Origin: an uncultured bacterium
GTDB lineage: Bacteria > Patescibacteriota > Minisyncoccia > Phycocordibacterales > PALSA-1337
Length of the DNA stretch: 64,000 nucleotides
Direction: 5' to 3'
Assembly (NCBI GenBank): GCA_903839725.1
Contig: CAIMDG010000002.1
Span: 305,117 to 369,116, forward strand
Both the position numbers and the translations under genes were made by a program. Of the stretch, positions 20,627 through 64,000 are shown piece after piece (position 1 is the stretch's first letter; every line of letters begins with the position of its first letter). The notes below the pieces were generated by a model. That model searched no databases. It was not told the origin of the DNA and worked only from the letters and a program-made list of their open reading frames with translations.

Positions 20627-21049
20627 ATGGCAAAAAAGATTGTAAAACAAGTAAAAGTTATCGCCCCTGCCGGAAAGGCAACCCCAGCTCCACCACTCGG
20701 TCCTACACTCGGTCAGGCCGGTGTTAACATTGGTGATTTCACCAAGAAGTTCAATGAAGCTACAAAGAACATGATGGGAGACATGATCCCTGTTCTTATT
20801 ACCGTCTATGAAGATCGTTCATATGATTTCGTACTCAAGACTCCTCCAACATCAAGTTTGATATTGAAGGCACTTAAGCTCGAAAAGGGTTCAGGTAAGC
20901 CAAATACTAACAAGGTTGGTACTCTCAACAAGGCTCAGCTCAAAGATATCGCAGAGAAGAAGATGCCTGACTTGAATGCTAACGATGTTGAAGCTGCAAT
21001 GAAAGTTGTTGCTGGTACAGCACGTCAGATGGGAGTAGATGTGAAGTAA
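20627..21049 (+). CDS. rplK: 50S ribosomal protein L11
   Basis: [47 protein letters not shown]. Confidence 0.92.
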
Positions 21050-21082
21050 TCTTAAATTTCAAATTTTAAATCTCAAAAATAA
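21050..21082 (+). repeat. A-rich AAATyTCAAA repeat, intergenic copy
   Basis: TCTTAAATTTCAAATTTTAAATCTCAAAAAT directly after the rplK stop. Same family as the four in-frame copies in ileS. Confidence 0.55.
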
Positions 21083-28840: not shown

Positions 28841-30589
28841 ATGAAAGAACAATTAGTCTCTTCACTCGAAAAAGCCCTTTCAACACTCGGTGTTGAGGCA
28901 AGTTTTGTGCGTCTTGAATATCCCGAGAATCCAGAACACGGTGACTATTCGAGCAATGTGGCAATGATGAATGCTAAGAAGCTCGGCGTGGCACCAAAGG
29001 TGCTTGCAGAAAAGATTGTTGCAGAATTTTCAAATAATAAACCTGATTTTATTGAATCGGTTAGCATTGCTGGTCCAGGATTTATCAATTTCAAATTGAC
29101 CACTTCTGCAGTTACTGCGAATACCTCATCTATCTTAAAACAAAAAGAAAATTTTGGTGTGCAAACTCTCGGTAAAGGTAAGACGATGCTTGTTGAATAT
29201 TCATCACCAAATATCGCAAAGCCTTTTACGGTCGGACATTTACGCTCAACTATTATCGGAGATTCAGTTGCGAACATTCTTGATATGCTCGGCTATACCG
29301 TTGTTCGTGACAATCATTTGGGTGATTGGGGGACACAATTTGGAAAATTGGTTGTTGCATTGGAAAAATGGGGAAGTATAGAGACGATCAAAAAGAGTAA
29401 AGAACCTATTAAAGACCTCGTTGAGTTGTATGTGAAATTCCACGATGAAGTTGAAGGTGCGCGTGAAGCGGGTGATGAAGTTACTGCAAATGATCTTGAA
29501 GAACAAGCACGTGGAGCATTTCAGACACTTGAATCAGATTTACTCAAAGGAAATATCAAGTCTGAATTAGTTTCGACATGGAAGACGTGCATCGAATTAT
29601 CGAAAAAAGAATTTGATATTGTATACAAAAAGCTTGGTGTGTCATTTGATCCAAAGAGGGGAGATACGGAACTTGGTGAAAGTTTTTATATTGATAAGTC
29701 ACAACCAGTTACGGAACAACTCAAAGCAAAGAACCTTTTGAAAGAAAGTGAAGGTGCACAAGTGGTTTTCTTTGAAGGGGAAAAATATCCTCCACTTATT
29801 GTCGAGAAGAGTAATGGTGCTTCTATTTACGCTACTCGCGATTTGGCGGCTGATTGGTATCGCAAGCAAATGTACGGCAAGAATGGAAATCTCACTATTG
29901 TGAATGAAGTTGGTTCAGAACAGACGTTATATTTCAGACAACTCTTTGAAACTGAGAAGATGTTGGGTTGGTTCAACGATGGTGAACGTGTGCATGTGTC
30001 TCATGGTTTGTACCGATTCAAGGATGGAAAAATGTCTACACGAAAGGGTAATGTCATCTGGCTCGATGATATCATCACCGAAGCTGAAACTCGTGCCGCA
30101 AAGATTAATGAACAAAGTGCTCATGATGTAGCGATTGCCGCTATCAAGTTCAATGATCTGAAGCGCGATTCTATTCAAGACATTGTGTTTGATTGGGATG
30201 AAATGATGAGTATGACAGGGGATTCGGGTCCATATCTTCAGTATTCATGTGTTCGCGCAGGAGCTGTCGTAGAAAAGGCTCGTGGACTCGGTATTGCAGG
30301 ATCACTTTCTGGTAAGAGACCAGAAGTTGCGGCACTCGAACAACTAGAGAGAAACCTCGTTCGATTCCCATACATGATTGCATTTGCTGGTGAATCATAT
30401 AAACCAAATATTATTGCAAATTATCTCATTACTACCGCAGCACTATTTAATGGTTTTTATGCTCAAACTATTATTGCTGATGCAGCGGATGAAACATCTG
30501 CCTACAAAGTCGCTGTTACCGAGGCGTTTGCCATTATTATGAAACAAGGTCTTCGCCTTCTTGGAATTACGATTCCAGAGAAGATGTAA
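28841..30589 (+). CDS. argS: arginine--tRNA ligase
   Basis: N-terminal Arg_tRNA_synt_N, SSPNIAKPFTVGHLRSTIIG (HIGH-class), DALR anticodon-binding domain. 582 aa. Confidence 0.92.
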   Translation: MKEQLVSSLEKALSTLGVEASFVRLEYPENPEHGDYSSNVAMMNAKKLGVAPKVLAEKIVAEFSNNKPDFIESVSIAGPGFINFKLTTSAVTANTSSILKQKENFGVQTLGKGKTMLVEYSSPNIAKPFTVGHLRSTIIGDSVANILDMLGYTVVRDNHLGDWGTQFGKLVVALEKWGSIETIKKSKEPIKDLVELYVKFHDEVEGAREAGDEVTANDLEEQARGAFQTLESDLLKGNIKSELVSTWKTCIELSKKEFDIVYKKLGVSFDPKRGDTELGESFYIDKSQPVTEQLKAKNLLKESEGAQVVFFEGEKYPPLIVEKSNGASIYATRDLAADWYRKQMYGKNGNLTIVNEVGSEQTLYFRQLFETEKMLGWFNDGERVHVSHGLYRFKDGKMSTRKGNVIWLDDIITEAETRAAKINEQSAHDVAIAAIKFNDLKRDSIQDIVFDWDEMMSMTGDSGPYLQYSCVRAGAVVEKARGLGIAGSLSGKRPEVAALEQLERNLVRFPYMIAFAGESYKPNIIANYLITTAALFNGFYAQTIIADAADETSAYKVAVTEAFAIIMKQGLRLLGITIPEKM

Positions 30590-30625: not shown

Positions 30626-30988
30626 ATGAAAATATATATCTCACATGTAAAAGAATCCGATTTTCTTGATGGTCTTTATAAGCCTATAAAAGAATCAGAG
30701 TTATACAGTAAACATGAGTTCTTTTTTCCTCATGATTCAAATGAACTTGTAAATACTAAAGATATTATAAAAAACTCAGCACTTGTTATTGCTGAAGTTT
30801 CGCAACCAGCAACTGGTCAGGGTATTGAGCTCGGATGGGCAAATATACTTAATGTTCCAATTGTGTGCATATATAAAGATGGTTGCAAAATAGCAGGGTC
30901 ACTCAAATATATTTCTGATACATTTATTGTTTATTCAGATCAAACAGATTTGATTAAAAAACTTTCTGAGTATCTTAATAAGATTTAG
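30626..30988 (+). CDS. nucleoside 2-deoxyribosyltransferase-like protein
   Basis: MKIYISH...ATGQGIELGWANILNVPIVCIY fits the NDT-fold catalytic-Glu motif. Confidence 0.45.
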   Translation: MKIYISHVKESDFLDGLYKPIKESELYSKHEFFFPHDSNELVNTKDIIKNSALVIAEVSQPATGQGIELGWANILNVPIVCIYKDGCKIAGSLKYISDTFIVYSDQTDLIKKLSEYLNKI

Positions 30989-31031: not shown

Positions 31032-34000
31032 ATGTCAGTAGAAATTCCAGACAAAAAACCAAAATCACCTAATGCGGAGCGTGAAGAACGTATTCTTTTG
31101 AGTTGGAAAGAAAAAGATATTTTCAATAAAACTCTAACTAAACCTGCACCCAAAGGGGAATTCGTTTTTTTTGAAGGTCCTCCAACTGCCAATGGTCGCC
31201 CCGGAATCCATCACCTCGAAGCGCGTGCATTCAAGGATGCAATACCTCGTTACAAAACGATGCAAGGTTTTTATGTGCGTCGCAAAGGAGGTTGGGATAC
31301 TCACGGTTTGCCCGTTGAACTCCAAGTAGAAAAAGAGCTTGGTCTCAAATCAAAAAAGGAAATCGAGAATTACGGTATCGCCGCATTCAATGATAAGTGT
31401 AAAGAAAGTGTTTGGAAATATGTCCATGAATGGGAAGACTTCACCAATCGCATGGGATACTGGGTTGATCTCAAGAATCCATACATCACCTATAAGTCTC
31501 AATATATTGAAGCAGTATGGAATGTCATCAAGACTGCAGATGATAAGAAGTTACTCTATAAAGACTACAAAGTAGTACCATGGTGTCCGCGTTGTGGAAC
31601 AGGATTATCTTCACATGAATTGGCACAAGGGTATGAAGAAGTAAAGGATTTGACGTTGTACGTTAAATTCAAAATTAAATCTCAAATTTCAAATCTCAAA
31701 AATGAAGCACAGGGAGATACATATTTTTTGGCATGGACAACAACACCGTGGACGCTTCCGGGAAATGTGGCATTGGCAGTAGGGAAGGATATTGAATATG
31801 TGAAGGTTAAAACAGGTGAATTACTTTCACCAGAAGCTTCTTCACCTAAAGGTGGTAAAGGTGTCGATATGGAAGCGGCATTTATTCGCGGTAATAATAA
31901 GGATGATATTTATTTAATTCTTGCAAAAGAGCGTTTGAGTGTACTCAAAGATGTTCAGCATGAAATTGTTGAAACAATAAAGGGCTCTGACCTTGTCGGA
32001 CTTTCCTATGAGCCACTATTCTCATTCTTGAAAGACAGCGTGACAGGGGAGCAGAAAGATAAACTTTCACATGCATTCAAAGTATATGCGGGTGATTTCG
32101 TCACCACAACCGACGGTACAGGTATTGTGCACATCGCCCCAATGTATGGACAAGACGATTTTGAGCTCGGTACAAAAAATAATTTGCCAAAATATCATCT
32201 CGTAAATGATGACGGCACGTTCAAAAAAGAATGTGGCTTTTTGGCTGGTAGATTCGTCAAAGAGAAAGATGCTAATGGTAAACCAACCTTGGATGTTGAT
32301 GTGGTTAATTATCTCAAAGAAAAAGGATTATTCTTTGCTCAAGAAAATTATAAGCATACATATCCTCATTGCTGGCGCTGTCATACACCACTTATCTATT
32401 TTGCACGTGATTCATGGTATATCCGCATGTCATCACTTCGAGATGAGCTCGTTAAACAAAATGAAGGTATTCATTGGGAACCTGAACATATCAAAGAAGG
32501 ACGTTTCGGTGAATGGCTCCGCGAAATCAAGGATTGGGCAATTTCACGTGAGCGTTATTGGGGAACACCATTGCCAATCTGGTCATGTGAAAAATGTCAT
32601 GCACGAAAAGTTGTTGGTTCAGTCGATGATCTCAAACGTCCTGCAAAGAATACGTATTATGTGATGAGACATGGTGAGTCGACAGGTAATATTGAAAGGG
32701 TTTTGAATAGTAGTATAACCGCGCAAGTTTCTCTTACTGATACTGGTAAAGAGCAAGTAAAAAAGTCCGCGCAAGCTTTGAGAAAGATATCATTTGACTA
32801 CATAATCGCTTCTCCTCTTGTGCGCACCCAAGAAACAGCACATATTGTAAAAAATGAACTCGGTCTTACTGATAGTCAGATGATTACGGATGAACGTCTA
32901 GTCGAACTCGGTCTTGGTCCATGGAATGGAAAACCTGTAGATGATTTTCTTGATGCGTATCCAGTCGCTAGTCGCTTTGAGAAGACTATTGAAGGTGTAG
33001 AATCGTATGTTGATCTCAAAAAACGCGTTGGCGGTTTTCTCTATGAGTGTGAGAAAAAATATGAGGGCAAAACTATTCTTATCGTTACTCATGGTTCTCC
33101 TGCTACATTACTTGTGGCTGTGACACAGGGAATGAATCATGAACAAACTATTTCCTACGAAGAAGAACATTTCCTCGGTAATGCTGAAGTTCGTCCTCTT
33201 CAATATACCGTTTTTCCACATAATACTGAGTATGAACTCGATCTCCACCGACCATTCATCGATGAGGTAACCTTTGCATGTTCGTGTGGAGGAGTAATGA
33301 AGCGTGCAAAAGAAGTTATGGACGTCTGGTTTGATTCTGGAGCTATGCCATTTGCGCAAGATCACGAGATGAAATCTCAAATCTCAAAAATCAAATCTCA
33401 AAACTTCTTTTCAAAATTATTCGGTAAGGAATCAAAGATGTTATATCCTGCCGATTTTATTTCAGAGGCAATTGACCAGACTCGTGGATGGTTCTATACA
33501 CTTCATGCTATTGGTGCAATCATGGGGAAGGGTAAGGCGTACAGGAATGTTATTTGTCTCGGACATATTCTCGATGCTGAGGGTAAGAAGATGTCCAAGT
33601 CTGTAGGTAATGTGGTGAATCCATGGGACATGATGGATCTTTACGGTGCTGATGCATTACGTTTTTGGATGTATTCGGTCAATCAGCCAGGTGACTCAAA
33701 GAATTTTGATCAAAAAACAGTTGATGAGGTGGTGAAGAAAGTATTTAACTTGGCTTCAAATGTTCTTTCGTTCTATAAGATGTACGAAGATACATCTCAA
33801 AAATCAAATCTCAAAAATCAAATCAAATCGCAAAACGTACTGGATCAATGGATCATCACACGATTGGATGAAGTTATTGAGACGGTCACAAAAGGACTTG
33901 ATGGGTATGTATTCTTGGAACCTACACGTACTATCCGTGATTTTATCGCTGATCTATCACAATGGTATCTTCGCCGTTCACGCGATAGATTCAAGGGTGA

Positions 34001-34619
34001 TGATGAAGCTGATAAACAAGCAGCACTAGAAACAACAAAGTATGTATTGATAACTTTGGCAAAAGTTATGGCACCATTCACACCGTTCTTTGCTGAATTT
34101 ATGTATACAGAAACTGGTGGTGAAAAGGAAAGTGTTCACCTCGAGGAGTGGCCAGAAGCAGGGAAGGTTGATGCGAAACTTATTGCCGACATGAATATTG
34201 TTCGAAGTCTTTCTTCGAAGGGTCTTGAGGCAAGAATGAAGGCAAAAATAAATGTGAGACAGCCACTCGCAAATCTTAAATCTCAAATTTCAAATCTCAA
34301 AGATTTAGCACCGGAACTTATTGATCTCATAAAGGATGAAGTAAATGTAAAAAATATCGTATTTGAAGGAGCACTTACAACTGAAGTCGAGTTGGATACA
34401 ACTATCACTCCAGAGCTCAAAGAAGAAGGTGATGTTCGTGAACTCATCCGTTCTATTCAAGATTTGAGAAAAGAAAAAGGTCTGTCTGTAGGAGATAAAG
34501 TATCTATTACTGTCCCAGAATCAAATCGTGCCTTGGTTGAAAAATATGGCCATGAAATCAAGAAGACAACAGGTCTCATCGATATCAAGGTCGGTGATAG
34601 CTTGAGTATCATCGCGTAA
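31032..34619 (+). CDS. ileS: isoleucine--tRNA ligase carrying an inserted histidine-phosphatase domain and four short in-frame repeat insertions
   Basis: Canonical IleRS blocks: PPTANGRPGIHH (HIGH), AWTTTPWTLPGN, WGTPLPIWSCEKCH, DLHRPFIDEV..CSCGG, DVWFDSG, QTRGWFYTL, KMSKSVGN. 1195 aa is about 150-250 aa longer than typical. Confidence 0.92.
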   Translation: MSVEIPDKKPKSPNAEREERILLSWKEKDIFNKTLTKPAPKGEFVFFEGPPTANGRPGIHHLEARAFKDAIPRYKTMQGFYVRRKGGWDTHGLPVELQVEKELGLKSKKEIENYGIAAFNDKCKESVWKYVHEWEDFTNRMGYWVDLKNPYITYKSQYIEAVWNVIKTADDKKLLYKDYKVVPWCPRCGTGLSSHELAQGYEEVKDLTLYVKFKIKSQISNLKNEAQGDTYFLAWTTTPWTLPGNVALAVGKDIEYVKVKTGELLSPEASSPKGGKGVDMEAAFIRGNNKDDIYLILAKERLSVLKDVQHEIVETIKGSDLVGLSYEPLFSFLKDSVTGEQKDKLSHAFKVYAGDFVTTTDGTGIVHIAPMYGQDDFELGTKNNLPKYHLVNDDGTFKKECGFLAGRFVKEKDANGKPTLDVDVVNYLKEKGLFFAQENYKHTYPHCWRCHTPLIYFARDSWYIRMSSLRDELVKQNEGIHWEPEHIKEGRFGEWLREIKDWAISRERYWGTPLPIWSCEKCHARKVVGSVDDLKRPAKNTYYVMRHGESTGNIERVLNSSITAQVSLTDTGKEQVKKSAQALRKISFDYIIASPLVRTQETAHIVKNELGLTDSQMITDERLVELGLGPWNGKPVDDFLDAYPVASRFEKTIEGVESYVDLKKRVGGFLYECEKKYEGKTILIVTHGSPATLLVAVTQGMNHEQTISYEEEHFLGNAEVRPLQYTVFPHNTEYELDLHRPFIDEVTFACSCGGVMKRAKEVMDVWFDSGAMPFAQDHEMKSQISKIKSQNFFSKLFGKESKMLYPADFISEAIDQTRGWFYTLHAIGAIMGKGKAYRNVICLGHILDAEGKKMSKSVGNVVNPWDMMDLYGADALRFWMYSVNQPGDSKNFDQKTVDEVVKKVFNLASNVLSFYKMYEDTSQKSNLKNQIKSQNVLDQWIITRLDEVIETVTKGLDGYVFLEPTRTIRDFIADLSQWYLRRSRDRFKGDDEADKQAALETTKYVLITLAKVMAPFTPFFAEFMYTETGGEKESVHLEEWPEAGKVDAKLIADMNIVRSLSSKGLEARMKAKINVRQPLANLKSQISNLKDLAPELIDLIKDEVNVKNIVFEGALTTEVELDTTITPELKEEGDVRELIRSIQDLRKEKGLSVGDKVSITVPESNRALVEKYGHEIKKTTGLIDIKVGDSLSIIA
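31677..31703 (+). repeat. in-frame A-rich repeat copy 1 in ileS (encodes KSQISNLKN)
   Basis: AAATCTCAAATTTCAAATCTCAAAAAT. Confidence 0.6.
32655..33239 (+). other. histidine phosphatase (phosphoglycerate-mutase superfamily, branch 1) domain embedded in IleRS
   Basis: YYVMRHGESTGN (RHG catalytic His), SPLVRTQETA, DERLVELGLGPWNG, ILIVTHGSP (second His). Flanked by IleRS residues ...DDLKRPAKNT and EYELDLHRPF... Confidence 0.75.
33372..33404 (+). repeat. in-frame A-rich repeat copy 2 in ileS (KSQISKIKSQN)
   Basis: AAATCTCAAATCTCAAAAATCAAATCTCAAAAC. Confidence 0.6.
33793..33836 (+). repeat. in-frame A-rich repeat copy 3 in ileS (SQKSNLKNQIKSQN)
   Basis: CATCTCAAAAATCAAATCTCAAAAATCAAATCAAATCGCAAAAC. 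Confidence 0.6.
34271..34302 (+). repeat. in-frame A-rich repeat copy 4 in ileS (NLKSQISNLKD)
   Basis: AAATCTTAAATCTCAAATTTCAAATCTCAAAG. Confidence 0.6.
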
Positions 34620-35243
34620 ATGCATCCGATTCATACAACTCCTGGTCTTATCATTCATTCACGTCCATATGGTGAAGCGGGGAAGTTGTTGTCGATATTT
34701 ACACGTGATTTTGGTCTTGTGCTCGCGAATGCACAAGGTATCCGACTAGAAAAATCAAAGTTGCGACCATTTATCCAAGATTATTCATTTGGTATTTTTT
34801 CGTTGGTAAAAGGAAAAGAGTTGTGGAGATTAACAAGCGCGCAGAGTGTCGCTACGAATCTACAAATAAATACGAATGCCATGCCTGCGCATGCAGGAAC
34901 AAATACATCGCAACCTCATCTAGAATTGTTTGCGCGACTCGCACTACTTCTCAAGAGACTGCTTCAAGGAGAAGAACCACATGCTGAACTATTTGATGTG
35001 ATTATGTTGTGTAAGGAATTTTTGCAGAACACCATTAATATATCTGATGAACAAGTAAAAACGCTTGAATCTTTGGTAGTTTTGCGCATGATGCATTCGC
35101 TCGGATACATAGGTAAGGATATATTACTGGATGAGCATATTCTCTCAAAAGTAATTTCACTTGAATTGATCGATCAGCTCACAGGGAAGCGCGTTGTCAT
35201 GAATCAGCATATAAATAAAGCTTTGAAGGAGTCACATTTGTAA
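34620..35243 (+). CDS. recO: DNA repair protein RecO
   Basis: N-terminal OB-fold pattern GLIIHSRPYGEAGKLLSIFTRDFGLV. Start overlaps ileS stop (TAAATG). Confidence 0.65.
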   Translation: MHPIHTTPGLIIHSRPYGEAGKLLSIFTRDFGLVLANAQGIRLEKSKLRPFIQDYSFGIFSLVKGKELWRLTSAQSVATNLQINTNAMPAHAGTNTSQPHLELFARLALLLKRLLQGEEPHAELFDVIMLCKEFLQNTINISDEQVKTLESLVVLRMMHSLGYIGKDILLDEHILSKVISLELIDQLTGKRVVMNQHINKALKESHL

Positions 35244-38002: not shown

Positions 38003-39400
38003 TTGATATACAATGCCTTTATGTCAAAAGCACCAGAAACAATGGAATTACTCATCTCCCTCGCCAAGCGCAGGGGTTTTATATATCAAGGTTCAGAAAT
38101 ATACGGTGGTCTCGCAGGCACATGGGACTACGGTCCACTTGGTGTAACGCTCAAGAATAATGTGAGAAAGATATGGTGGAAGCGTTTCGTCGATGATCGT
38201 GATGATATGTACGGCATTGATGCAGCTATTCTCATGAACCAACGCACATGGGAAGCTACTGGTCACGTAGCTAGTTTTGCTGACCCTCTTGTTGAAGATG
38301 TTAAAACCAAGAAGCGTTTTCGTGCGGATCATCTTCTCGAAGATGCAGGCATTGATACAAAAGGTCTTACGGTAGCCAAGATGAATGACCTCATCAAAGA
38401 GAAAAAAATCAAGAGTCCAGACGGTAACACTGTTGGTGATATACGTCAGTTCAATATGATGTTCAAAACGCACGTCGGTGCAAATGAAGATGCAGGATCA
38501 ATTTCATATCTTCGTCCAGAAACAGCACAAGGTATGTTTGTGAACTTCAAAAACATCATGGATTCATTCCATCCAAAGCTTCCGTTCGGTATGGCACAGA
38601 TAGGTAAGGCTTTCCGAAATGAGATTGCTCCTCGCGATTTTCTATTCCGTGCGCGTGAATTCGAGCAGATGGAAATAGAATATATGGTTGATCCAAAGAA
38701 GTGGGCTGAAACCTTCGATCATTTCAGAGAACAGGTGATAGCTTTTACCAAGGATGTTGGTCTTACTCAGTCAAAGGTCCATGAATTGGAAATTGCTGAT
38801 GCAGATCGTGCTTTCTATTCAAAGCGTACAATTGATTTTGAATTTGATTTTCCTTTTGGTCGCAAAGAGTTGTATGGTCTCGCGTATCGTACGGATTATG
38901 ACTTGAAGCAACACTCTGAATTCAGTAAGGTTGATTTGTCATATTTTGATGAGGAAACAAAAGAGCGATTTGTTCCGCACTGCATTGAACCTTCATTCGG
39001 TCTAGATCGAACTGTTCTTGCAGTCCTCACTGACGCATATACTGAGGATGAACTTGGGGGAGAGAAGCGTGTATATCTCAAACTTGCACCGTCAGTAGCG
39101 CCATACAAGGTTGCAGTATTTCCACTGCTCAAGAACAAACCTCAACTCGTAGAGAAAGCTCGTGACATATTCAAGACTATCAAGAAAGTTATTCCTGAAG
39201 TTATTTTTGATGATAACGGCAATATTGGTAAGCGTTACCGCAGACAAGATGAAATTGGTACACCATTCTGTGTAACTGTTGATTTTGACACTATCGAGAA
39301 AAACTCTGGTGTTACTGTCAGAAATCGTGATACTGGAGCACAGGAGAGAGTTGAAGAGAAGGATTTGATTGAATTCTTAAAGAAATCTATTGGACAGTAG
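38003..39400 (+). CDS. glyQS: glycine--tRNA ligase (alpha2 homodimeric class II type)
   Basis: LAKRRGFIYQGSEIYGGLAGTWDYGPLG, FRNEIAPRDFLFRAREFEQMEIEY (motif 2), C-terminal anticodon-binding domain. 465 aa. Confidence 0.9.
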   Translation: MIYNAFMSKAPETMELLISLAKRRGFIYQGSEIYGGLAGTWDYGPLGVTLKNNVRKIWWKRFVDDRDDMYGIDAAILMNQRTWEATGHVASFADPLVEDVKTKKRFRADHLLEDAGIDTKGLTVAKMNDLIKEKKIKSPDGNTVGDIRQFNMMFKTHVGANEDAGSISYLRPETAQGMFVNFKNIMDSFHPKLPFGMAQIGKAFRNEIAPRDFLFRAREFEQMEIEYMVDPKKWAETFDHFREQVIAFTKDVGLTQSKVHELEIADADRAFYSKRTIDFEFDFPFGRKELYGLAYRTDYDLKQHSEFSKVDLSYFDEETKERFVPHCIEPSFGLDRTVLAVLTDAYTEDELGGEKRVYLKLAPSVAPYKVAVFPLLKNKPQLVEKARDIFKTIKKVIPEVIFDDNGNIGKRYRRQDEIGTPFCVTVDFDTIEKNSGVTVRNRDTGAQERVEEKDLIEFLKKSIGQ

Positions 39401-42881: not shown

Positions 42882-44318
42882 ATGAAACCTTTCTATATCA
42901 CGACGACTCTTCCGTATGTTAACGCTAAACCTCATATCGGTTTTGCTATGGAACTTATTCGTGCCGATGTGATCGCTCGTGCCAAGAAAATTAGTGGTCA
43001 GGAGGTATTTTTTAATACGGGTACTGACGAGCACGGCACCAAAATACATCGCAAAGCAAAAGAATTGAATATTGATACTCAGACATACGTTGATGGTGCC
43101 GCTCAGAAATTCAAGGATTTGATTTCGATGTTAGGTATTAGTCCAGATATCAATTTTATTCGCACAACTGACGTACATCATATTGTAGCTGCTCAGGCAT
43201 TTTGGCTCTTGGTAAAAAAGAATGGATTCATTTACAAGAAGAATTACTCTGTAAAGTATTGTGTTGGATGTGAGCTTGAAAAGACCGAATCAGAATTGGT
43301 TGAAGGACGTTGTCCATTGCACCCATTGACTGAACTTGAAATTATTCAAGAAGAAAATTATTTCTTTAAATTCAGTGAATTTCAAAAGCCACTTCTCGAA
43401 TTGTACAAGAATAATCCTGATTTTGTTTTTCCTCATTCTCGCTTGAATGAGATCCGTGCCTTCGTTGAGAGGGGACTTGAAGACTTTAGTATTTCTCGTT
43501 TGGCTACCAAGATGCCGTGGGGTGTTGCTGTTCCTGATGATGCAGATCATGTGATGTATGTGTGGTTCGATGCTCTGGTTGATTATATTTCAGCAATTGA
43601 TTGGCCTACTAAGCAGGATGTATTCAAGAAATGGTGGGTTGAAAGTGGAGGTGTGGTTCAATACTGTGGAAAGGATAATCTCCGTCAACAGGCTGCAATG
43701 TGGCAGGCAATGCTCATGGCTGCAGGTCTCACACCGTCAAAGGCTATTGTTGTTGACGGGTTCATTACAGGTGATGGTGGTATCAAAATGTCAAAGTCTC
43801 TTGGTAATACTATTGATCCAAAAGATTTGGTCAGTGAATACAGCGCTGATGCGGTTCGCTATTTCATGACCCGTGAATTGTCTCCATTTGAAGATAGTCC
43901 ATTCACGCCTGAGAAGTTCAAGGAAGCCTACAATGCAAATCTAGCCAATGGTATTGGTAATCTGACGTCACGTATCATGAAGATGGCTTCAACTCATATT
44001 TCTACACCAGTAAAAATATCAGCAAAACCATTTCCTGCAGAATATCATGCGTCTATAGAAGCTTATGATCTTCAGAAGGCGTCTGATGTTATTTGGAAAC
44101 ATATCACCGAACTCGATCAGCGTATTCAACAAGAGAAGCCATTTTCATTGGTCAAAGAGGATCTCGAAAAAGGAAAAGTGATCATCACCGAACTCGTTCA
44201 GGGTCTTTCGTGGGTTGCTGATATGCTCCGACCATTCATGCCGACAACATCTGAAGCTGTTCTTGCCTGTATCGCCAAGAATGAAATGCCAGCCACTCCG
44301 CTTTTCCTCAGAAAATAA
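42882..44318 (+). CDS. metG: methionine--tRNA ligase (minimal form)
   Basis: YITTTLPYVNAKPHIGFAMELIRADVIAR (HIGH-class), KMSKSLGN, zinc knuckle CVGCE...CPLH. Confidence 0.9.
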   Translation: MKPFYITTTLPYVNAKPHIGFAMELIRADVIARAKKISGQEVFFNTGTDEHGTKIHRKAKELNIDTQTYVDGAAQKFKDLISMLGISPDINFIRTTDVHHIVAAQAFWLLVKKNGFIYKKNYSVKYCVGCELEKTESELVEGRCPLHPLTELEIIQEENYFFKFSEFQKPLLELYKNNPDFVFPHSRLNEIRAFVERGLEDFSISRLATKMPWGVAVPDDADHVMYVWFDALVDYISAIDWPTKQDVFKKWWVESGGVVQYCGKDNLRQQAAMWQAMLMAAGLTPSKAIVVDGFITGDGGIKMSKSLGNTIDPKDLVSEYSADAVRYFMTRELSPFEDSPFTPEKFKEAYNANLANGIGNLTSRIMKMASTHISTPVKISAKPFPAEYHASIEAYDLQKASDVIWKHITELDQRIQQEKPFSLVKEDLEKGKVIITELVQGLSWVADMLRPFMPTTSEAVLACIAKNEMPATPLFLRK

Positions 44319-46960: not shown

Positions 46961-47045
46961 TAAATTACAAATTAAAAATAACAAATCCAAAAATCAAGCA
47001 TCATAATATCAAAGATATGCAATTGTTTATTTTTGAGATTTGATA
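46961..47045. repeat. A-rich repeat family, forward copy then reverse-complement copy (rpsF-ssb intergenic)
   Basis: TAAATTACAAATTAAAAATAACAAATCCAAAAATCAAGC ... TTTTTGAGATTTGATATTTGAGTTTTGAATTTT. Confidence 0.45.
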
Positions 47046-47070
47046 TTTGAGTTTTGAATTTTATTACACT

Positions 47071-57203: not shown

Positions 57204-60038
57204 ATGAAGTATGTACTAAAAGTGTGTGTAAAATTATCGATTATTATTTCAGCGTTGGTATGGGGGATTTCACATGTTGAAGCGTCTACAGTTGTGCCGA
57301 GTACGCCTATATTGAGCGGTGTAGAGTGGACCGCTTCGGGCAGTCCGTATATTATCGAAAAAAGTGTATACGTAGATCGAAGGGGTAGTCTGACTATCGG
57401 CCCTGGTGTTGAGGTGATGCTGGCGAGTTCGTCGTTGTCTGGAAGGATATATGATCGTCCCAATATATATGTAAACGGGTCTCTAACACTCAATGGAACT
57501 GCGGAGGCTCCAATTTCTATTCATGATGTAGCCGGTATCAATATTGATTTTGGATCACTGGATGCTAAGTACAGTGTTATGGATATGCCTTTGGGTGTAA
57601 ATGCGGTTTCTTCATGGATACATATTGCTTCAAGTACTGTTAAGAATGCTGAGCAGGGTGTTCAGGATATTAATAGTTATATTCAGATAACAAATTCACG
57701 GATAGAACATAATGGTATCGGTGTATATGCGATGCCTGTCGGAGGACCACCTCTGGCCGGGGATAGCAACTCAACTGAAGTTGGTGGTGTTGGAAATGCC
57801 TTTGAAAATAGTCCTATACTGCTGGCCTTGAATGGAACAAAAAATCCTGTTGGTGTTTTCATTTCGAGTTCTACACTAATTGATAATTCAGAGTACGCAA
57901 TCAAAAATGATGGAGCAAACACGGTGCATGCAACCTATAATTGGTGGGGGAGTTCCGATGGTCCAGTGACTGCCACTTCGAGTCTGTTGAATGGGCTTGT
58001 TGAATATGACCCTTGGATAAAGCATGAGAAAGCCTGTTGTTCTAGCGTGCTTTTCATTCCTGGAATTGAAGGTAGTCGTTTGTATTCCGTAACTCCTGCA
58101 CGAGGTACAACGGCTACAAGTACGCGCCGGGTATGGGAACCACACAATAACACTGATGTTGCAAAGTTGTACTTGAATAGTATGGGCTCAAGCACAGATA
58201 CTTCTATATATTCAGATGGACCTATTGATGTGGCATATGGACTTAAAAGTATATATGGTTCATTCATGAAATTTCTTGATACTCTCTCATCACGAAATAT
58301 CGTCACTGAATGGAAATCGTTTGGATATGATTGGAGAAAATCGATTCCAGACATAGTTGCAGGGAATGAGAAAAGAGCTACAACAACACAATCTTTGATC
58401 GGTCTTATTCAAACGATGGCCTCAAGTTCGAAGACTGGTCAGGTAACATTAGTCGCGCACAGTAATGGTGGTTTGGTGGCAAAATATCTCGTGAAAGTAC
58501 TTACGGACTTGGGCAAGAGTAATCTTATAGATTCTGTACTAGGAGTAGCGGTGCCCTATGTAGGTACACCTGAAGCGATTCCCGATCTACTTCATGGATA
58601 TAATCAATCAATTCTCAGTGGGTTAATTTTGAAAGATAGTACTGCACGTAGTCTGGCAGTGAATATGCCAAGCATATATTCGCTCCTACCGTCAGCGGCA
58701 TATTTTGCGAAGGTATTAAGTCCCTCAATTGCATTCGCAAGTACGACAACGACGGGAATAAATAATGGGAGTTATCCCAAGGAATTAAATTCTATTTCAG
58801 CACAAAATTCATTTATTGCAGACACAAATAATGTACGTAAAAATCCAGCAGCGTCAGATACGTCTGTGCCCATAAAAGGGAACCAATTACTTCTCGGTGC
58901 GGCCGGATTGCTCCATGGAATAATTGATTCATTTGTTTGGCCAGAATCTATATCTCACTGGTCAATTCTTGGATGGAATATTCCTACAATCAAAACAGTG
59001 TTCTATCAAAGTACTGATCGTTGCGCACTCGCTCTGGCACATAGAACATGCCCACCACGACTTCTGTACGGTGCTTCAACAACTGCAATGGGTGATGGTA
59101 CGGTCGTTGCACCAAGTGCAGCATATGATACGAGCTCAGTTGTCTCTATTGATTTGAATCGTGTCTCAAAGTTAGAAAATATGAATATTAGTCATGCAAA
59201 TATTCTTGAATCGTCGACAACTCAGAAACAAATAGAAGATATCATCACTCACAAACAGCCCAGTAACGGCCAGTCTTCTATTCCTGGAATTTCTTACGGT
59301 GAACCAGAATATACCAAGGAGCCAACATTTATCGTTGTTCATTCGCAAGGACTGGTCGGCTTGAATGTCTACGATTCGTCTGGTCATCATACCGGTGAAA
59401 TGCCTGTGCCCACTGAGGTGACTGATGATGTAGTAAAGGCGTACGAAGAGACTATTCCTGGAAGTCGATATGAACAACTGGGGGACCAGAATAGATCAAT
59501 ATATATTCCTGATATGAGCGGACGATATTCGATAGTTGCACAAGGTTCTGGCGTGGGTTCATTTGATCTCAGTATTGATCGTGTACAAGGGGACACCATC
59601 TTAGACACAACTCACTTTGATGCTATTCCCGTGACACCAACAACAGTTGCTTCAACTACTATTAGTACTGGTGATACTGGAGTGACTACTACATCATCTT
59701 TGGCATCGTCTACGACAGTACTCACTATCGATGTTTCTGGTGGCGGATCGAATGTGTTGGTAGTACCACCAAATGTACAACCAGATACAACAACGTATTT
59801 GGATATATTTAAGAAATATATTGATAGGATGGACAGTTCACATAAACATTCGAAAGATATTTACAGGAGGATAGAGCGTCTGCAGGAATTATGGAAGAAA
59901 GGTGGACGTATAGATATTCACAAAGGGAAAGAATACGCAGGAAATTGGATGCGTCATATAAGATCAGACAAAGGATTGTTAGAGAAAAAAGATCAAGTGA
60001 TTGACGATATTGATAGATTTATCAGTCAGTTTGAATAG
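57204..60038 (+). CDS. large secreted protein: right-handed beta-helix region followed by alpha/beta-hydrolase (lipase/PGAP1-like, GxSxG) domain
   Basis: Signal peptide. Repeated NxxxxN/HNGIGVYA beta-helix turns. VLFIPGIEGSRLY and LVAHSNGGLVAKYLV nucleophile elbow. Confidence 0.55.
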   Translation: MKYVLKVCVKLSIIISALVWGISHVEASTVVPSTPILSGVEWTASGSPYIIEKSVYVDRRGSLTIGPGVEVMLASSSLSGRIYDRPNIYVNGSLTLNGTAEAPISIHDVAGINIDFGSLDAKYSVMDMPLGVNAVSSWIHIASSTVKNAEQGVQDINSYIQITNSRIEHNGIGVYAMPVGGPPLAGDSNSTEVGGVGNAFENSPILLALNGTKNPVGVFISSSTLIDNSEYAIKNDGANTVHATYNWWGSSDGPVTATSSLLNGLVEYDPWIKHEKACCSSVLFIPGIEGSRLYSVTPARGTTATSTRRVWEPHNNTDVAKLYLNSMGSSTDTSIYSDGPIDVAYGLKSIYGSFMKFLDTLSSRNIVTEWKSFGYDWRKSIPDIVAGNEKRATTTQSLIGLIQTMASSSKTGQVTLVAHSNGGLVAKYLVKVLTDLGKSNLIDSVLGVAVPYVGTPEAIPDLLHGYNQSILSGLILKDSTARSLAVNMPSIYSLLPSAAYFAKVLSPSIAFASTTTTGINNGSYPKELNSISAQNSFIADTNNVRKNPAASDTSVPIKGNQLLLGAAGLLHGIIDSFVWPESISHWSILGWNIPTIKTVFYQSTDRCALALAHRTCPPRLLYGASTTAMGDGTVVAPSAAYDTSSVVSIDLNRVSKLENMNISHANILESSTTQKQIEDIITHKQPSNGQSSIPGISYGEPEYTKEPTFIVVHSQGLVGLNVYDSSGHHTGEMPVPTEVTDDVVKAYEETIPGSRYEQLGDQNRSIYIPDMSGRYSIVAQGSGVGSFDLSIDRVQGDTILDTTHFDAIPVTPTTVASTTISTGDTGVTTTSSLASSTTVLTIDVSGGGSNVLVVPPNVQPDTTTYLDIFKKYIDRMDSSHKHSKDIYRRIERLQELWKKGGRIDIHKGKEYAGNWMRHIRSDKGLLEKKDQVIDDIDRFISQFE

Positions 60039-61072: not shown

Positions 61073-61308
61073 ATGTTGTTAAATTACAAATTTCAAATAT
61101 CAATTTTCAAACCAGCATTTAGATGTGGTTTGTTTGAACATTGGAATTTGGTTTTTGATATTTCTAGTTGCCTTGGGCAACTGGTTCGACCTTTTATAGG
61201 CCTAATAGAGATGAATACCTCGGAAGGTCTTGTATCCTTATATAAGGATTGCCTTCTGTCTTAGAGCCTTGGGAACAATATTACATGAATTTTGATTAAA
61301 CGCAAATT

Positions 61309-63194: not shown

Positions 63195-63579
63195 TATCCT
63201 CACTACCGAATGAATACAAGAAATACCCAATCACAGCGGCCATAGCCACACCCCGTCATTGGAGTGTTAAGCATGCCGCTCAATGAAGCGGTTTTTTCTT
63301 TTCAGAACGACAGAAACTTTGAAAACCACATATACTCAATCAAGTAAGGTTTGTGTGTGATGAGTAATTGCACACAAACAAAACGTACACGTCTCTCCGC
63401 CAACCGGCGGAAAGGGATGTGTACGTCATCCGCATTCGTTCGGGTCGAATGAATGCGGGCAGTTCATACGCTGTGAAGTGTATGAGCGAAGTAATGTAGG
63501 TATTTCTCGAAAGAGAAAATAGCATTCTGATGCAAATCAGAGTGCAAGAAAACAAAATGCGGTTTTTAAATTTCCTAAT

Positions 63580-64000
63580 AGGAAATTAAGGGCGTATGGT
63601 GGATGCCTTGGCTTCATGGAGGCGATGAAAGACGCGGCGTGGCGGCGATACGCTTCGGGGAGGTGCCGAGCAACCTTTGATCCGAAGATGTCTGAATGGG
63701 GAAACCCCACCGAGTAAAACTTGGTGATCTAACACTTGATGTTAGAAGCGTACCCTGGGAAGTAAAACATTTCAGTACCAGGTGGAAAATAAACAAATAT
63801 GCATTCCGTGAGTAGCGGCGAGCGAAAGCGGAGATAGTCTAAACTTATTGTAGCAATACAATGAGGGTTGCAAGGTAGAGACGTACCATTTATGGTAGAG
63901 AAGTTACAAATCTTTTTATTAATCGAATGAGTTGGAAAGCTCAGCCCCAGAAGGTGATAGCCCTGTAAGTGAAAATAAAAAGACTTCTTTGTTTCTATTC
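63580..64000 (+). rRNA. rrl: 23S ribosomal RNA, 5' portion (continues beyond window)
   Basis: GGTGGATGCCTTGGC, GGCGATGAAAGACGCGG, GAATGGGGAAACCCC, AGTAGCGGCGAGCGAAAGCGGAG align with the universally conserved 23S 5' domain I. Confidence 0.92.

Follow-up and report, generated by a model that had tools for sequence, protein, structure and literature searches.

A branch-1 histidine phosphatase domain nested in the isoleucyl-tRNA synthetase of a patescibacterial lineage and its relatives

The ileS gene of an uncultured bacterium of the Patescibacteriota (Minisyncoccia; Phycocordibacterales; PALSA-1337) encodes a type-2 isoleucyl-tRNA synthetase (IleRS) that carries a histidine phosphatase domain between the two halves of its zinc knuckle. 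The gene lies in a stretch of 64,000 nucleotides (contig CAIMDG010000002.1 of assembly GCA_903839725.1, positions 305,117 to 369,116 of the forward strand), here called the window and numbered from its first letter. Conservation figures, in the feature list and below, derive from an alignment of 121 family sequences. The features of the gene are, in order along the window:

31032..34619, plus strand: ileS, type-2 isoleucyl-tRNA synthetase of 1195 residues (aa), an uninterrupted open reading frame (ORF), from the ORF call and the TIGR00392 match
31203..31214, plus strand: class I signature G58-I-H-H61, in the swapped form GxHH (not HxGH), read from the sequence and found in 117 of 121 family members
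32586..32597, plus strand: first half of the zinc knuckle, C519-E-K-C522, both cysteines being conserved in 120 of 121 sequences
32649..33218, plus strand: nested histidine phosphatase (branch 1) domain, aa 540-729 (190 aa), from PF00300 and the alignment to 8c8w
32667..32675, plus strand: R546-H547-G548, phosphate-binding Arg and predicted nucleophilic His; R546 and H547 invariant
32688..32690, plus strand: N553, Asn of the phosphate pocket, invariant
32811..32825, plus strand: S594-P-L-V-R598, with the second phosphate-binding Arg; S594 and R598 invariant
32904..32906, plus strand: E625, predicted general acid/base, invariant and aligned to the Glu of the PspA motif IEIDHG
33090..33092, plus strand: H687, second catalytic His (in THG), invariant
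33279..33287, plus strand: second half of the zinc knuckle, C750-S-C752, both cysteines being conserved in 120 of 121 sequences
33588..33602, plus strand: KMSKS loop of the IleRS, aa 853-857; K853, M854 and K856 invariant

The ORF scores 886.7 bits against the NCBIfam model TIGR00392 (ileS; equivalog cut-off 621.4), in a match that is split into two stretches by the insert, and both class I signature motifs expected of this family (HIGH-type and KMSKS) are present. Pfam recognizes tRNA-synt_1, Anticodon_1, a C-terminal DUF5915 and, at residues 543-706, His_Phos_1. The C-terminal DUF5915 and the nearest solved structures place the enzyme among the type-2 synthetases (IleRS2): a sequence search against solved structures returned PmIleRS2 of Priestia megaterium as best match (8c8w, E=1.8e-231, and 8c8u) and T. 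thermophilus 1ile next, and the IleRS1 structure 1ffy matched far more weakly (E=3.5e-93). The GxHH signature is a documented functional variant of IleRS2 that has been linked to mupirocin hyper-resistance (PMC10485003). Most of the related insert-less and multi-site IleRS proteins have the canonical HYGH, unlike the GIHH found here, and the models for acquired mupirocin resistance, MupA and MupB (NF000257, NF000258), scored 758 and 764 bits, below the cut-off of 1900. With the KMSKS loop, the knuckle, the GxHH signature and a conserved editing region all retained, the host synthetase looks fully functional for aminoacylation and editing. An AlphaFold2 model of the full-length protein, based on the 121-sequence alignment, had a mean predicted local distance difference test score (pLDDT) of 86.3 and a predicted template modelling score (pTM) of 0.78.

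The position of the insert can be stated to the residue. Residue 539 aligns to residue 479 of the 8c8w chain and residue 730 to residue 480, so that the inserted piece comprises aa 540-729 and represents a clean insertion in which no host residue was replaced. PmIleRS2 (8C8U/8C8W) shares the family, the domain order, the zinc knuckle, KMSKS and GxHH with the enzyme described here, but has nothing between residues 479 and 480, where the latter accommodates a second enzyme of 190 residues. The insert occupies the loop between the CxxC (519-522) and CxC (750-752) halves of the knuckle. Since the HUP core corresponds to residues 40-168 and 513-632 in PmIleRS2 numbering (PMC10485003), this site falls within the connective-peptide region, at a place named CP2 or CP3 according to nomenclature. 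The original prediction, made from the sequence of the window, had placed an insertion of about 195 aa at 32655-33239; the insertion itself stands, and its boundaries shift to 32649-33218 (190 aa), with the last seven residues of the earlier segment (HNTEYEL) belonging to the host. The 8c8w alignment bears out, together with insert-less relatives, that canonical IleRS2 bridges this site with just a short linker and, together with the conservation pattern, that we are dealing with a true nested insertion in a functional-looking synthetase.

The excised segment matches His_Phos_1 (PF00300) with 117.1 bits (E=1e-33; gathering threshold 21.7), and in full-length context the E-value is 3.8e-32. It contains the motifs YYVMRHGESTGN (aa 542-553), SPLVRTQETA (594-603), DERLVELGLGPWNG (620-633) and ILIVTHGSP (682-690), and thereby the nucleophilic His of the RHG motif, the pocket Asn, the second Arg, the Glu and the second His of the branch-1 superfamily. 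The continuous 1195-aa ORF with its class I landmarks, the four phosphatase motifs and the two catalytic histidines had all been named in the original prediction, and all were recovered: the HIGH motif in its swapped form, the histidines as the invariant H547 and H687, and the domain itself by the strong Pfam match.

Structure comparisons lead to the same superfamily. When solved structures were searched with the insert sequence, the phosphoserine phosphatase PspA (4IJ5, 2e-14), PhoE (1H2E) and CobC were found. In the full-length model the insert is the best-predicted part (pLDDT 93-98), with both junction blocks above 93 (93-95); modelled alone, it reached a pLDDT of 95.2 and a pTM of 0.92. 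A Foldseek search with the latter model gave 321 PDB matches at E<=1e-3, the best 50 of which all belong to the histidine phosphatase superfamily. PspA 4IJ5 again ranked first (TM 0.79, root-mean-square deviation (rmsd) 2.3-2.4 A, probability 1.00), followed by PhoE, HFP 9MMH, Rv2419c, Rv3214 and CobC, and the top matches are all phosphatases of about 200 aa; cofactor-dependent mutases fit less completely (TMt about 0.6, rmsd 4-6 A). With PspA (4IJ5), PhoE/YhfR (1H2E, 1EBB), CobC (6E4B, 6NRU), Rv2419c (4PZ9) and the riboflavin-pathway HFP (9MMH) the insert shares the fold (TM 0.72-0.80), a similar length of some 200 aa and the catalytic RHG, Asn, second Arg, Glu and second His. These enzymes are free-standing and have known small-molecule substrates, whereas the insert is nested in a loop of IleRS and stays below all curated cut-offs. 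By these likenesses the domain appears to belong with the small broad-specificity metabolite phosphatases and not with the phosphoglycerate mutases.

Ten residues of the insert (R546, H547, N553, G572, S594, R598, E625, E657, R665 and H687) are invariant across the 121 sequences. As judged from the alignment, this set is the predicted complete complement of branch-1 catalytic residues plus positions of structural importance that are typical of the family. The length of the insert ranges from 187 to 201 aa. Its mean pairwise identity is 45%, close to the 49% of the C-terminal domain and well below the 81-84% of the catalytic core; the insert drifts like a peripheral domain, with its active site frozen. 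Among 171 domain copies from representatives, 119 show the pattern RHGNREH, and the remainder are mostly conservative variants or truncations.

The architecture is not confined to one genome. The best 120 homologues, drawn from NCBI, JGI, ENA and Logan assemblies on contigs of up to 857 kb, all carry both the synthetase (PF00133) and the PF00300 domain at 58-77% identity. They are labelled Taylorbacteria, Paceibacterota, Parcubacteria or Patescibacteria and are named in their sources only as 'class I tRNA ligase family protein' or 'isoleucyl-tRNA synthetase'. When species-representative genomes were scanned, 388 stretches matched, and the best 80 of the 388 all span junction, insert and junction contiguously; these 80 genomes include Taylorbacteria, Nomurabacteria, Campbellbacteria, Minisyncoccia and one complete chromosome of 876 kb. 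When 1.84 billion cluster representatives were searched exhaustively with only the insert as query, IleRS-embedded copies or fragments thereof made up 96 of the 150 best-matching proteins. The phosphatase-in-IleRS architecture is old and lineage-wide, neither an artefact nor a one-off.

Two other explanations were rejected. An assembly chimera is ruled out by more than 200 independent assemblies with the same architecture and by a guanine-plus-cytosine content that is continuous over both insert junctions (about 0.40-0.41). An intein, already excluded in the original prediction, is ruled out by the fold (His_Phos, not HINT), the lack of any HINT or intein match in Pfam and an insert that starts with N540-T-Y; the 'HN' that could be taken for an intein C-terminus, H730-N731, consists of host residues, which align from H480 of PmIleRS2.

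Beyond what had been predicted, the architecture turned out to be common and to have counterparts as an adjacent gene, in multi-copy and multi-site forms and in valyl-tRNA synthetase (ValRS). The adjacent gene is best seen in the closest free-standing homologue, P0150, a protein of 189 aa with 40% identity to the insert, whose gene precedes an insert-less ileS (931 aa) by one nucleotide. Its locus is syntenic with the window, in the order argS, histidine phosphatase, ileS, recO, DUF11 surface protein, class II aminoacyl-tRNA synthetase (aaRS). Seven of eight sampled free-standing homologues are located directly upstream of ileS, six of these seven with argS on the other side, and the eighth has an unrelated context (truncated neighbours were confirmed by BLASTP). 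The phosphatase genes beside ileS encode 189-196 aa. Four of these loci have the full ileS on the contig, and all four are insert-less (931-984 aa) and keep CxxC...CxC with a short linker. On sequence and gene order, the nested form appears to be the fused version of an arrangement that comprises two genes in related lineages.

The free phosphatases are 32-38% identical to the insert and their IleRS proteins 35-47% identical to the host part of the query, a similar divergence that is consistent with long co-inheritance of the pair. The hosts of insert-bearing IleRS span only 35-56% identity to the query and include both HxGH and GxHH lineages. Some carriers of the insert at the site described here (site A below) are nearer to adjacent-gene IleRS proteins than to the query; the nested and adjacent states are therefore interleaved. 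From these patterns we infer that the phosphatase, free-standing or nested, and IleRS are long-standing expression partners whose ratio nesting fixes at 1:1.

The neighbours of ileS in the window that take part in this synteny are:

28841..30589, plus strand: argS, arginyl-tRNA synthetase (ArgRS), conserved upstream neighbour, from Pfam and synteny
34620..35243, plus strand: recO-like gene, conserved downstream neighbour, from Pfam RecO_N, present in 68 of 80 loci

The order argS-ileS-recO-DUF11 is kept in most related loci, and argS, recO and the DUF11 surface protein are the only genes conserved around ileS in the 80 loci, among which no conserved neighbouring kinase, toxin or metabolic partner was found. 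Between argS and ileS, an ORF of 120 aa (30626-30988, plus strand) occupies the position that the free-standing phosphatase gene has in the syntenic loci; neither Pfam nor PADLOC gave a match for it, and none of the 80 related loci has a counterpart. Four aaRS genes lie on the same strand within 16 kb: ArgRS (28841-30589), IleRS (31032-34619), a class II enzyme with HGTP anticodon domain (38003-39400) and methionyl-tRNA synthetase (MetRS, 42882-44318). Neither ArgRS nor MetRS of the window contains a phosphatase domain, and the 64-kb window has no second His_Phos-like ORF.

Some related IleRS proteins carry two phosphatase domains. Insertion sites, in query numbering, are A (after 539), A' (past about 749-754, within the second CxC), B (about 789-805) and C (about 918-933). 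P0144 and P0195 use B and C without A, P0197 uses A and C, P0186 uses A' and B, and P0162 uses A and A'. Copies inside one protein share only 25-35% identity, position-specific orthologues 42-53%, and the P0144 cluster is found on contigs of up to 1.06 Mb; the multi-copy architectures are therefore old and stable. RH[G/A]-N-R-E/D-H is kept in nearly all copies of multi-copy proteins. A neighbour-joining tree of the domain copies (about 170 columns), computed for counting insertion events, was poorly resolved for sites B and C. One partial IleRS of 1066 aa (P0241) has an IS200-like Y1 transposase domain in its editing (CP1) region (aa 340-461), His_Phos_1 at site A and, downstream of it, a GNAT acetyltransferase domain.

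The same kind of domain is also found in ValRS. The four-copy protein P0123 is a ValRS (valS 411 bits vs ileS 199) with one copy at a further site, D, upstream of WxISRQ, and the other three in the loop equivalent to site A. In the ValRS family, 70 of 119 proteins among the matches listed (P0279-P0396) have embedded His_Phos_1 domains, one to three copies each, on contigs of up to 1.37 Mb labelled Gracilibacteria or Peregrinibacteria; a Nomurabacteria ValRS (P0383) is without the phosphatase domain. The main ValRS site, about 28 residues past WxISRQ (WxISRQ...PVW) and just before DxxDTWFSS, is the loop homologous to IleRS site A. Phosphatase-bearing ValRS thus resembles the query in kind of domain and in loop, with one to four copies per protein, and differs from it in the host synthetase, in forming a separate group of copies and in that about a third of them lack the Glu or the second His. 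Mean identity is 27% between ValRS and IleRS copies, as compared to 33% both among IleRS copies and between IleRS and free adjacent copies. The ValRS copies look as if a paralogous enzyme had acquired the domain independently at the equivalent loop, and the recurrence at a homologous loop in other Candidate Phyla Radiation (CPR) lineages suggests that the class Ia association was selected rather than accidental.

A motif with heptamer periodicity, (AAATCTC/AAATTTC)x3 and then AAA, is present in four in-frame copies inside ileS (31677-31700, 33372-33402, 33799-33822 and 34271-34301), where it encodes KSQISNLK-like peptides at aa ~216, 781, 925 and 1083, and elsewhere in the window at 21047-21077 (plus strand), 47032-47055 (minus strand) and 61081-61111 (plus strand). 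In total 17 overlapping matches were counted in the window, with 0.19 expected. The sites within ileS are variable loops in the family; the copies at aa ~216 and ~781 are predicted to lie beside or within low-pLDDT segments (223-226, 780-791), and those at aa ~781 and ~925 coincide with sites B and C, the phosphatase-hosting loops of other lineages. The motif is almost genome-specific, with a single copy in the closest relative (L001) only, and may represent a dispersed short repeat with in-frame insertion.

Away from ileS, the 5' end of a 23S rRNA gene (63576-64000, plus strand; Rfam LSU_rRNA_bacteria, 272 bits) runs off the window, and no tRNA genes were detected in the 64 kb. The ORF at 57204-60038 (plus strand, 944 aa) has as its sole family match an LCAT-like (lecithin:cholesterol acyltransferase) alpha/beta-hydrolase region at aa 354-540, which is unusual in a small-genome bacterium.

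Taken together, we consider it likely that the protein is the housekeeping IleRS2 of a Taylorbacteria-like bacterium of the Paceibacteria/Parcubacteria, with a nested, competent branch-1 phosphatase for a small phosphomonoester, and that it represents the fused counterpart of the adjacent gene. A single polypeptide with two separate active sites is predicted. The phosphatase would hydrolyze a phosphomonoester via a phospho-His547 intermediate, with R546, R598, N553 and H687 holding the phosphate and E625 acting as general acid. The least certain step is the substrate, which would be a small phosphomonoester because sequence and fold group the domain with PspA, PhoE, CobC and Rv2419c-type enzymes and no equivalog cut-off is reached. 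Nesting would impose obligatory 1:1 co-expression with an essential enzyme.

Several observations weigh against this interpretation. Catalytic competence is presumed from residue conservation only. The insert stays below the NCBIfam equivalog or subfamily cut-offs, scoring 101.5 vs 225 bits for dPGM_arch (NF038349), 28.3 vs 81.7 for pgm_1 (TIGR01258), 87.3 vs 162.9 for CobC, 66.5 vs 350 for PspA and 40.3 vs 74.5 for SixA. The full catalytic set is present in just 51 of 83 ValRS copies, the others (about a third) having lost the Glu and/or the second His. Also, a purely metabolic role does not obviously explain the specificity for IleRS and ValRS or the presence of two to four divergent copies.

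In a different role, the phosphatase would act in cis on tRNA or on another substrate linked to aminoacylation. It could clear the CCA end of a 3'-phosphate, of a 2',3'-cyclic phosphate or of a (pyro)phosphate added by a toxin and so make tRNA-Ile chargeable, or it could hydrolyze a phosphorylated by-product of the reaction. The partnership is specific to class Ia synthetases (IleRS across Paceibacteria, and ValRS, at the homologous loop, in genomes labelled Gracilibacteria or Peregrinibacteria), it persists both as nested domain and as adjacent gene, the insertion lies in the connective-peptide region flanking the catalytic core, and the modelled pLDDT of 93-95 over both junctions may hint at a fixed orientation. 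Nevertheless, the nearest solved structures in sequence and fold searches are small-metabolite enzymes and none is an RNA-end phosphatase, the insertion sites vary by lineage (A, A', B, C, D), which speaks against a single exact geometry relative to the tRNA, and the free-standing versions apparently work untethered. We therefore regard action on tRNA as possible but unlikely. The broader proposal that the histidine phosphatase is, throughout CPR/Patescibacteria, a dedicated partner of IleRS and ValRS, acting on the tRNA acceptor end or on an aminoacylation-tied phosphorylated species, e.g. to repair or detoxify tRNA that is 3'-phosphorylated or pyrophosphorylated, seems to us similarly doubtful. 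If true, it would add a third catalytic activity besides synthesis and editing, and it would explain why the domain was fixed repeatedly, as an adjacent gene, in several nested loops and independently in two paralogous synthetases.

Phosphoglycerate mutase (PGM) is apparently missing in shallow Parcubacteria clades (PMC7304191), and one may ask whether a cryptic PGM or another missing central step (e.g. phosphoserine phosphatase) is hidden inside ileS. The top NCBIfam model is indeed the archaeal-type cofactor-dependent PGM (dPGM, 101.5 bits), the best solved structure is the phosphoserine phosphatase PspA, and the window offers no other His_Phos-like ORF. Yet the scores remain far under the dPGM, PspA and CobC cut-offs, mutase structures fit less completely than phosphatases, and the established dPGM motifs E-R-H-Y (after the Glu) and H-G-N (second His) are replaced by E-L-G-L and H-G-S. 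With two to four divergent copies per protein being hard to fit to one glycolytic step, a hidden central enzyme is quite unlikely.

Branch-1 histidine phosphatases also include phosphatases of protein phospho-His, Ser/Thr and Tyr, and toxin kinases that phosphorylate aminoacyl-tRNA synthetases are known; a SixA-, PGAM5- or Sts-like protein phosphatase could accordingly have a regulatory or protective role, e.g. by removing an inhibitory phosphate from the synthetase or from another translation factor. The SixA model also matches weakly (40.3 bits), but below its cut-off of 74.5 and over the N-terminal third only. Given that there is no conserved kinase near ileS in the 80 loci and no match to a PADLOC defence family, and that the structural neighbours are metabolite phosphatases, such a role is very improbable. 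A tolerated structural or selfish passenger without catalysis (or a chimera or intein, see above) could account for the faster evolution of the insert (45% mean identity vs 81-84% in the core), for the permissiveness of the occupied loops, which in this genome also take short repeat-encoded peptides, and for the loss of catalytic residues in some ValRS copies, but has a negligible chance of being correct when six catalytic residues are invariant in 121 IleRS and kept in almost every copy of multi-copy proteins and the length is held to 187-201 aa.

Precedents exist for parts of the arrangement. The NCBIfam family ileS_w_GNAT (NF040702) is a curated case of an IleRS with an extra enzyme domain, of another type (N-acetyltransferase); the query, without an acetyltransferase domain, scores 294.5 bits against a cut-off of 1999. 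The Rv2228c-type RNase H/acid phosphatase (NF005567) likewise joins a CobC-like phosphatase to a nucleic-acid enzyme, and the insert matches its phosphatase half (positions 182-336; 78 bits vs a cut-off of 326), but there the phosphatase is fused end to end with RNase H, whereas here the domain is nested in a synthetase loop. The conceptual precedent is the CP1 editing domain of IleRS, ValRS and LeuRS, a whole hydrolytic domain that sits within a connective peptide of the Rossmann/HUP fold; unlike the phosphatase, which is lineage-restricted and of unrelated fold, CP1 occurs universally, is ancient and has aminoacyl-tRNA as its substrate. In line with the original prediction, full-text literature searches (IleRS or aaRS with histidine phosphatase or PGM, and CPR) yielded no description of a phosphatase in IleRS or ValRS, and recent IleRS2 studies, including a large phylogenetic one, do not mention such an insertion. 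The sequences have been public with precomputed Pfam matches, so it is the architecture that has gone unremarked and not the data that were unseen. The parts, a GxHH IleRS2 and a branch-1 phosphatase, are known; apparently new is the nesting of one in the other, with counterparts as an adjacent gene, at several sites and in ValRS.

Few enzymes have been studied as well as the aminoacyl-tRNA synthetases, and here a second enzyme is nested in the catalytic body of IleRS, an arrangement that is conserved over a large radiation of uncultivated bacteria and has a parallel in ValRS. Should the phosphatase be coupled to aminoacylation, it would add a new activity to translation quality control or to the repair of tRNA. 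Should it be metabolic, it would be a hidden gene that pathway reconstructions of CPR genomes would miss or mis-assign, which is relevant to the 'missing' PGM of Parcubacteria. In either case the adjacent, nested, multi-copy and multi-site states form a natural series for studying domain insertion into essential enzymes, and this series points to permissive loops, four of them in IleRS and one more in ValRS, that are useful for protein engineering.

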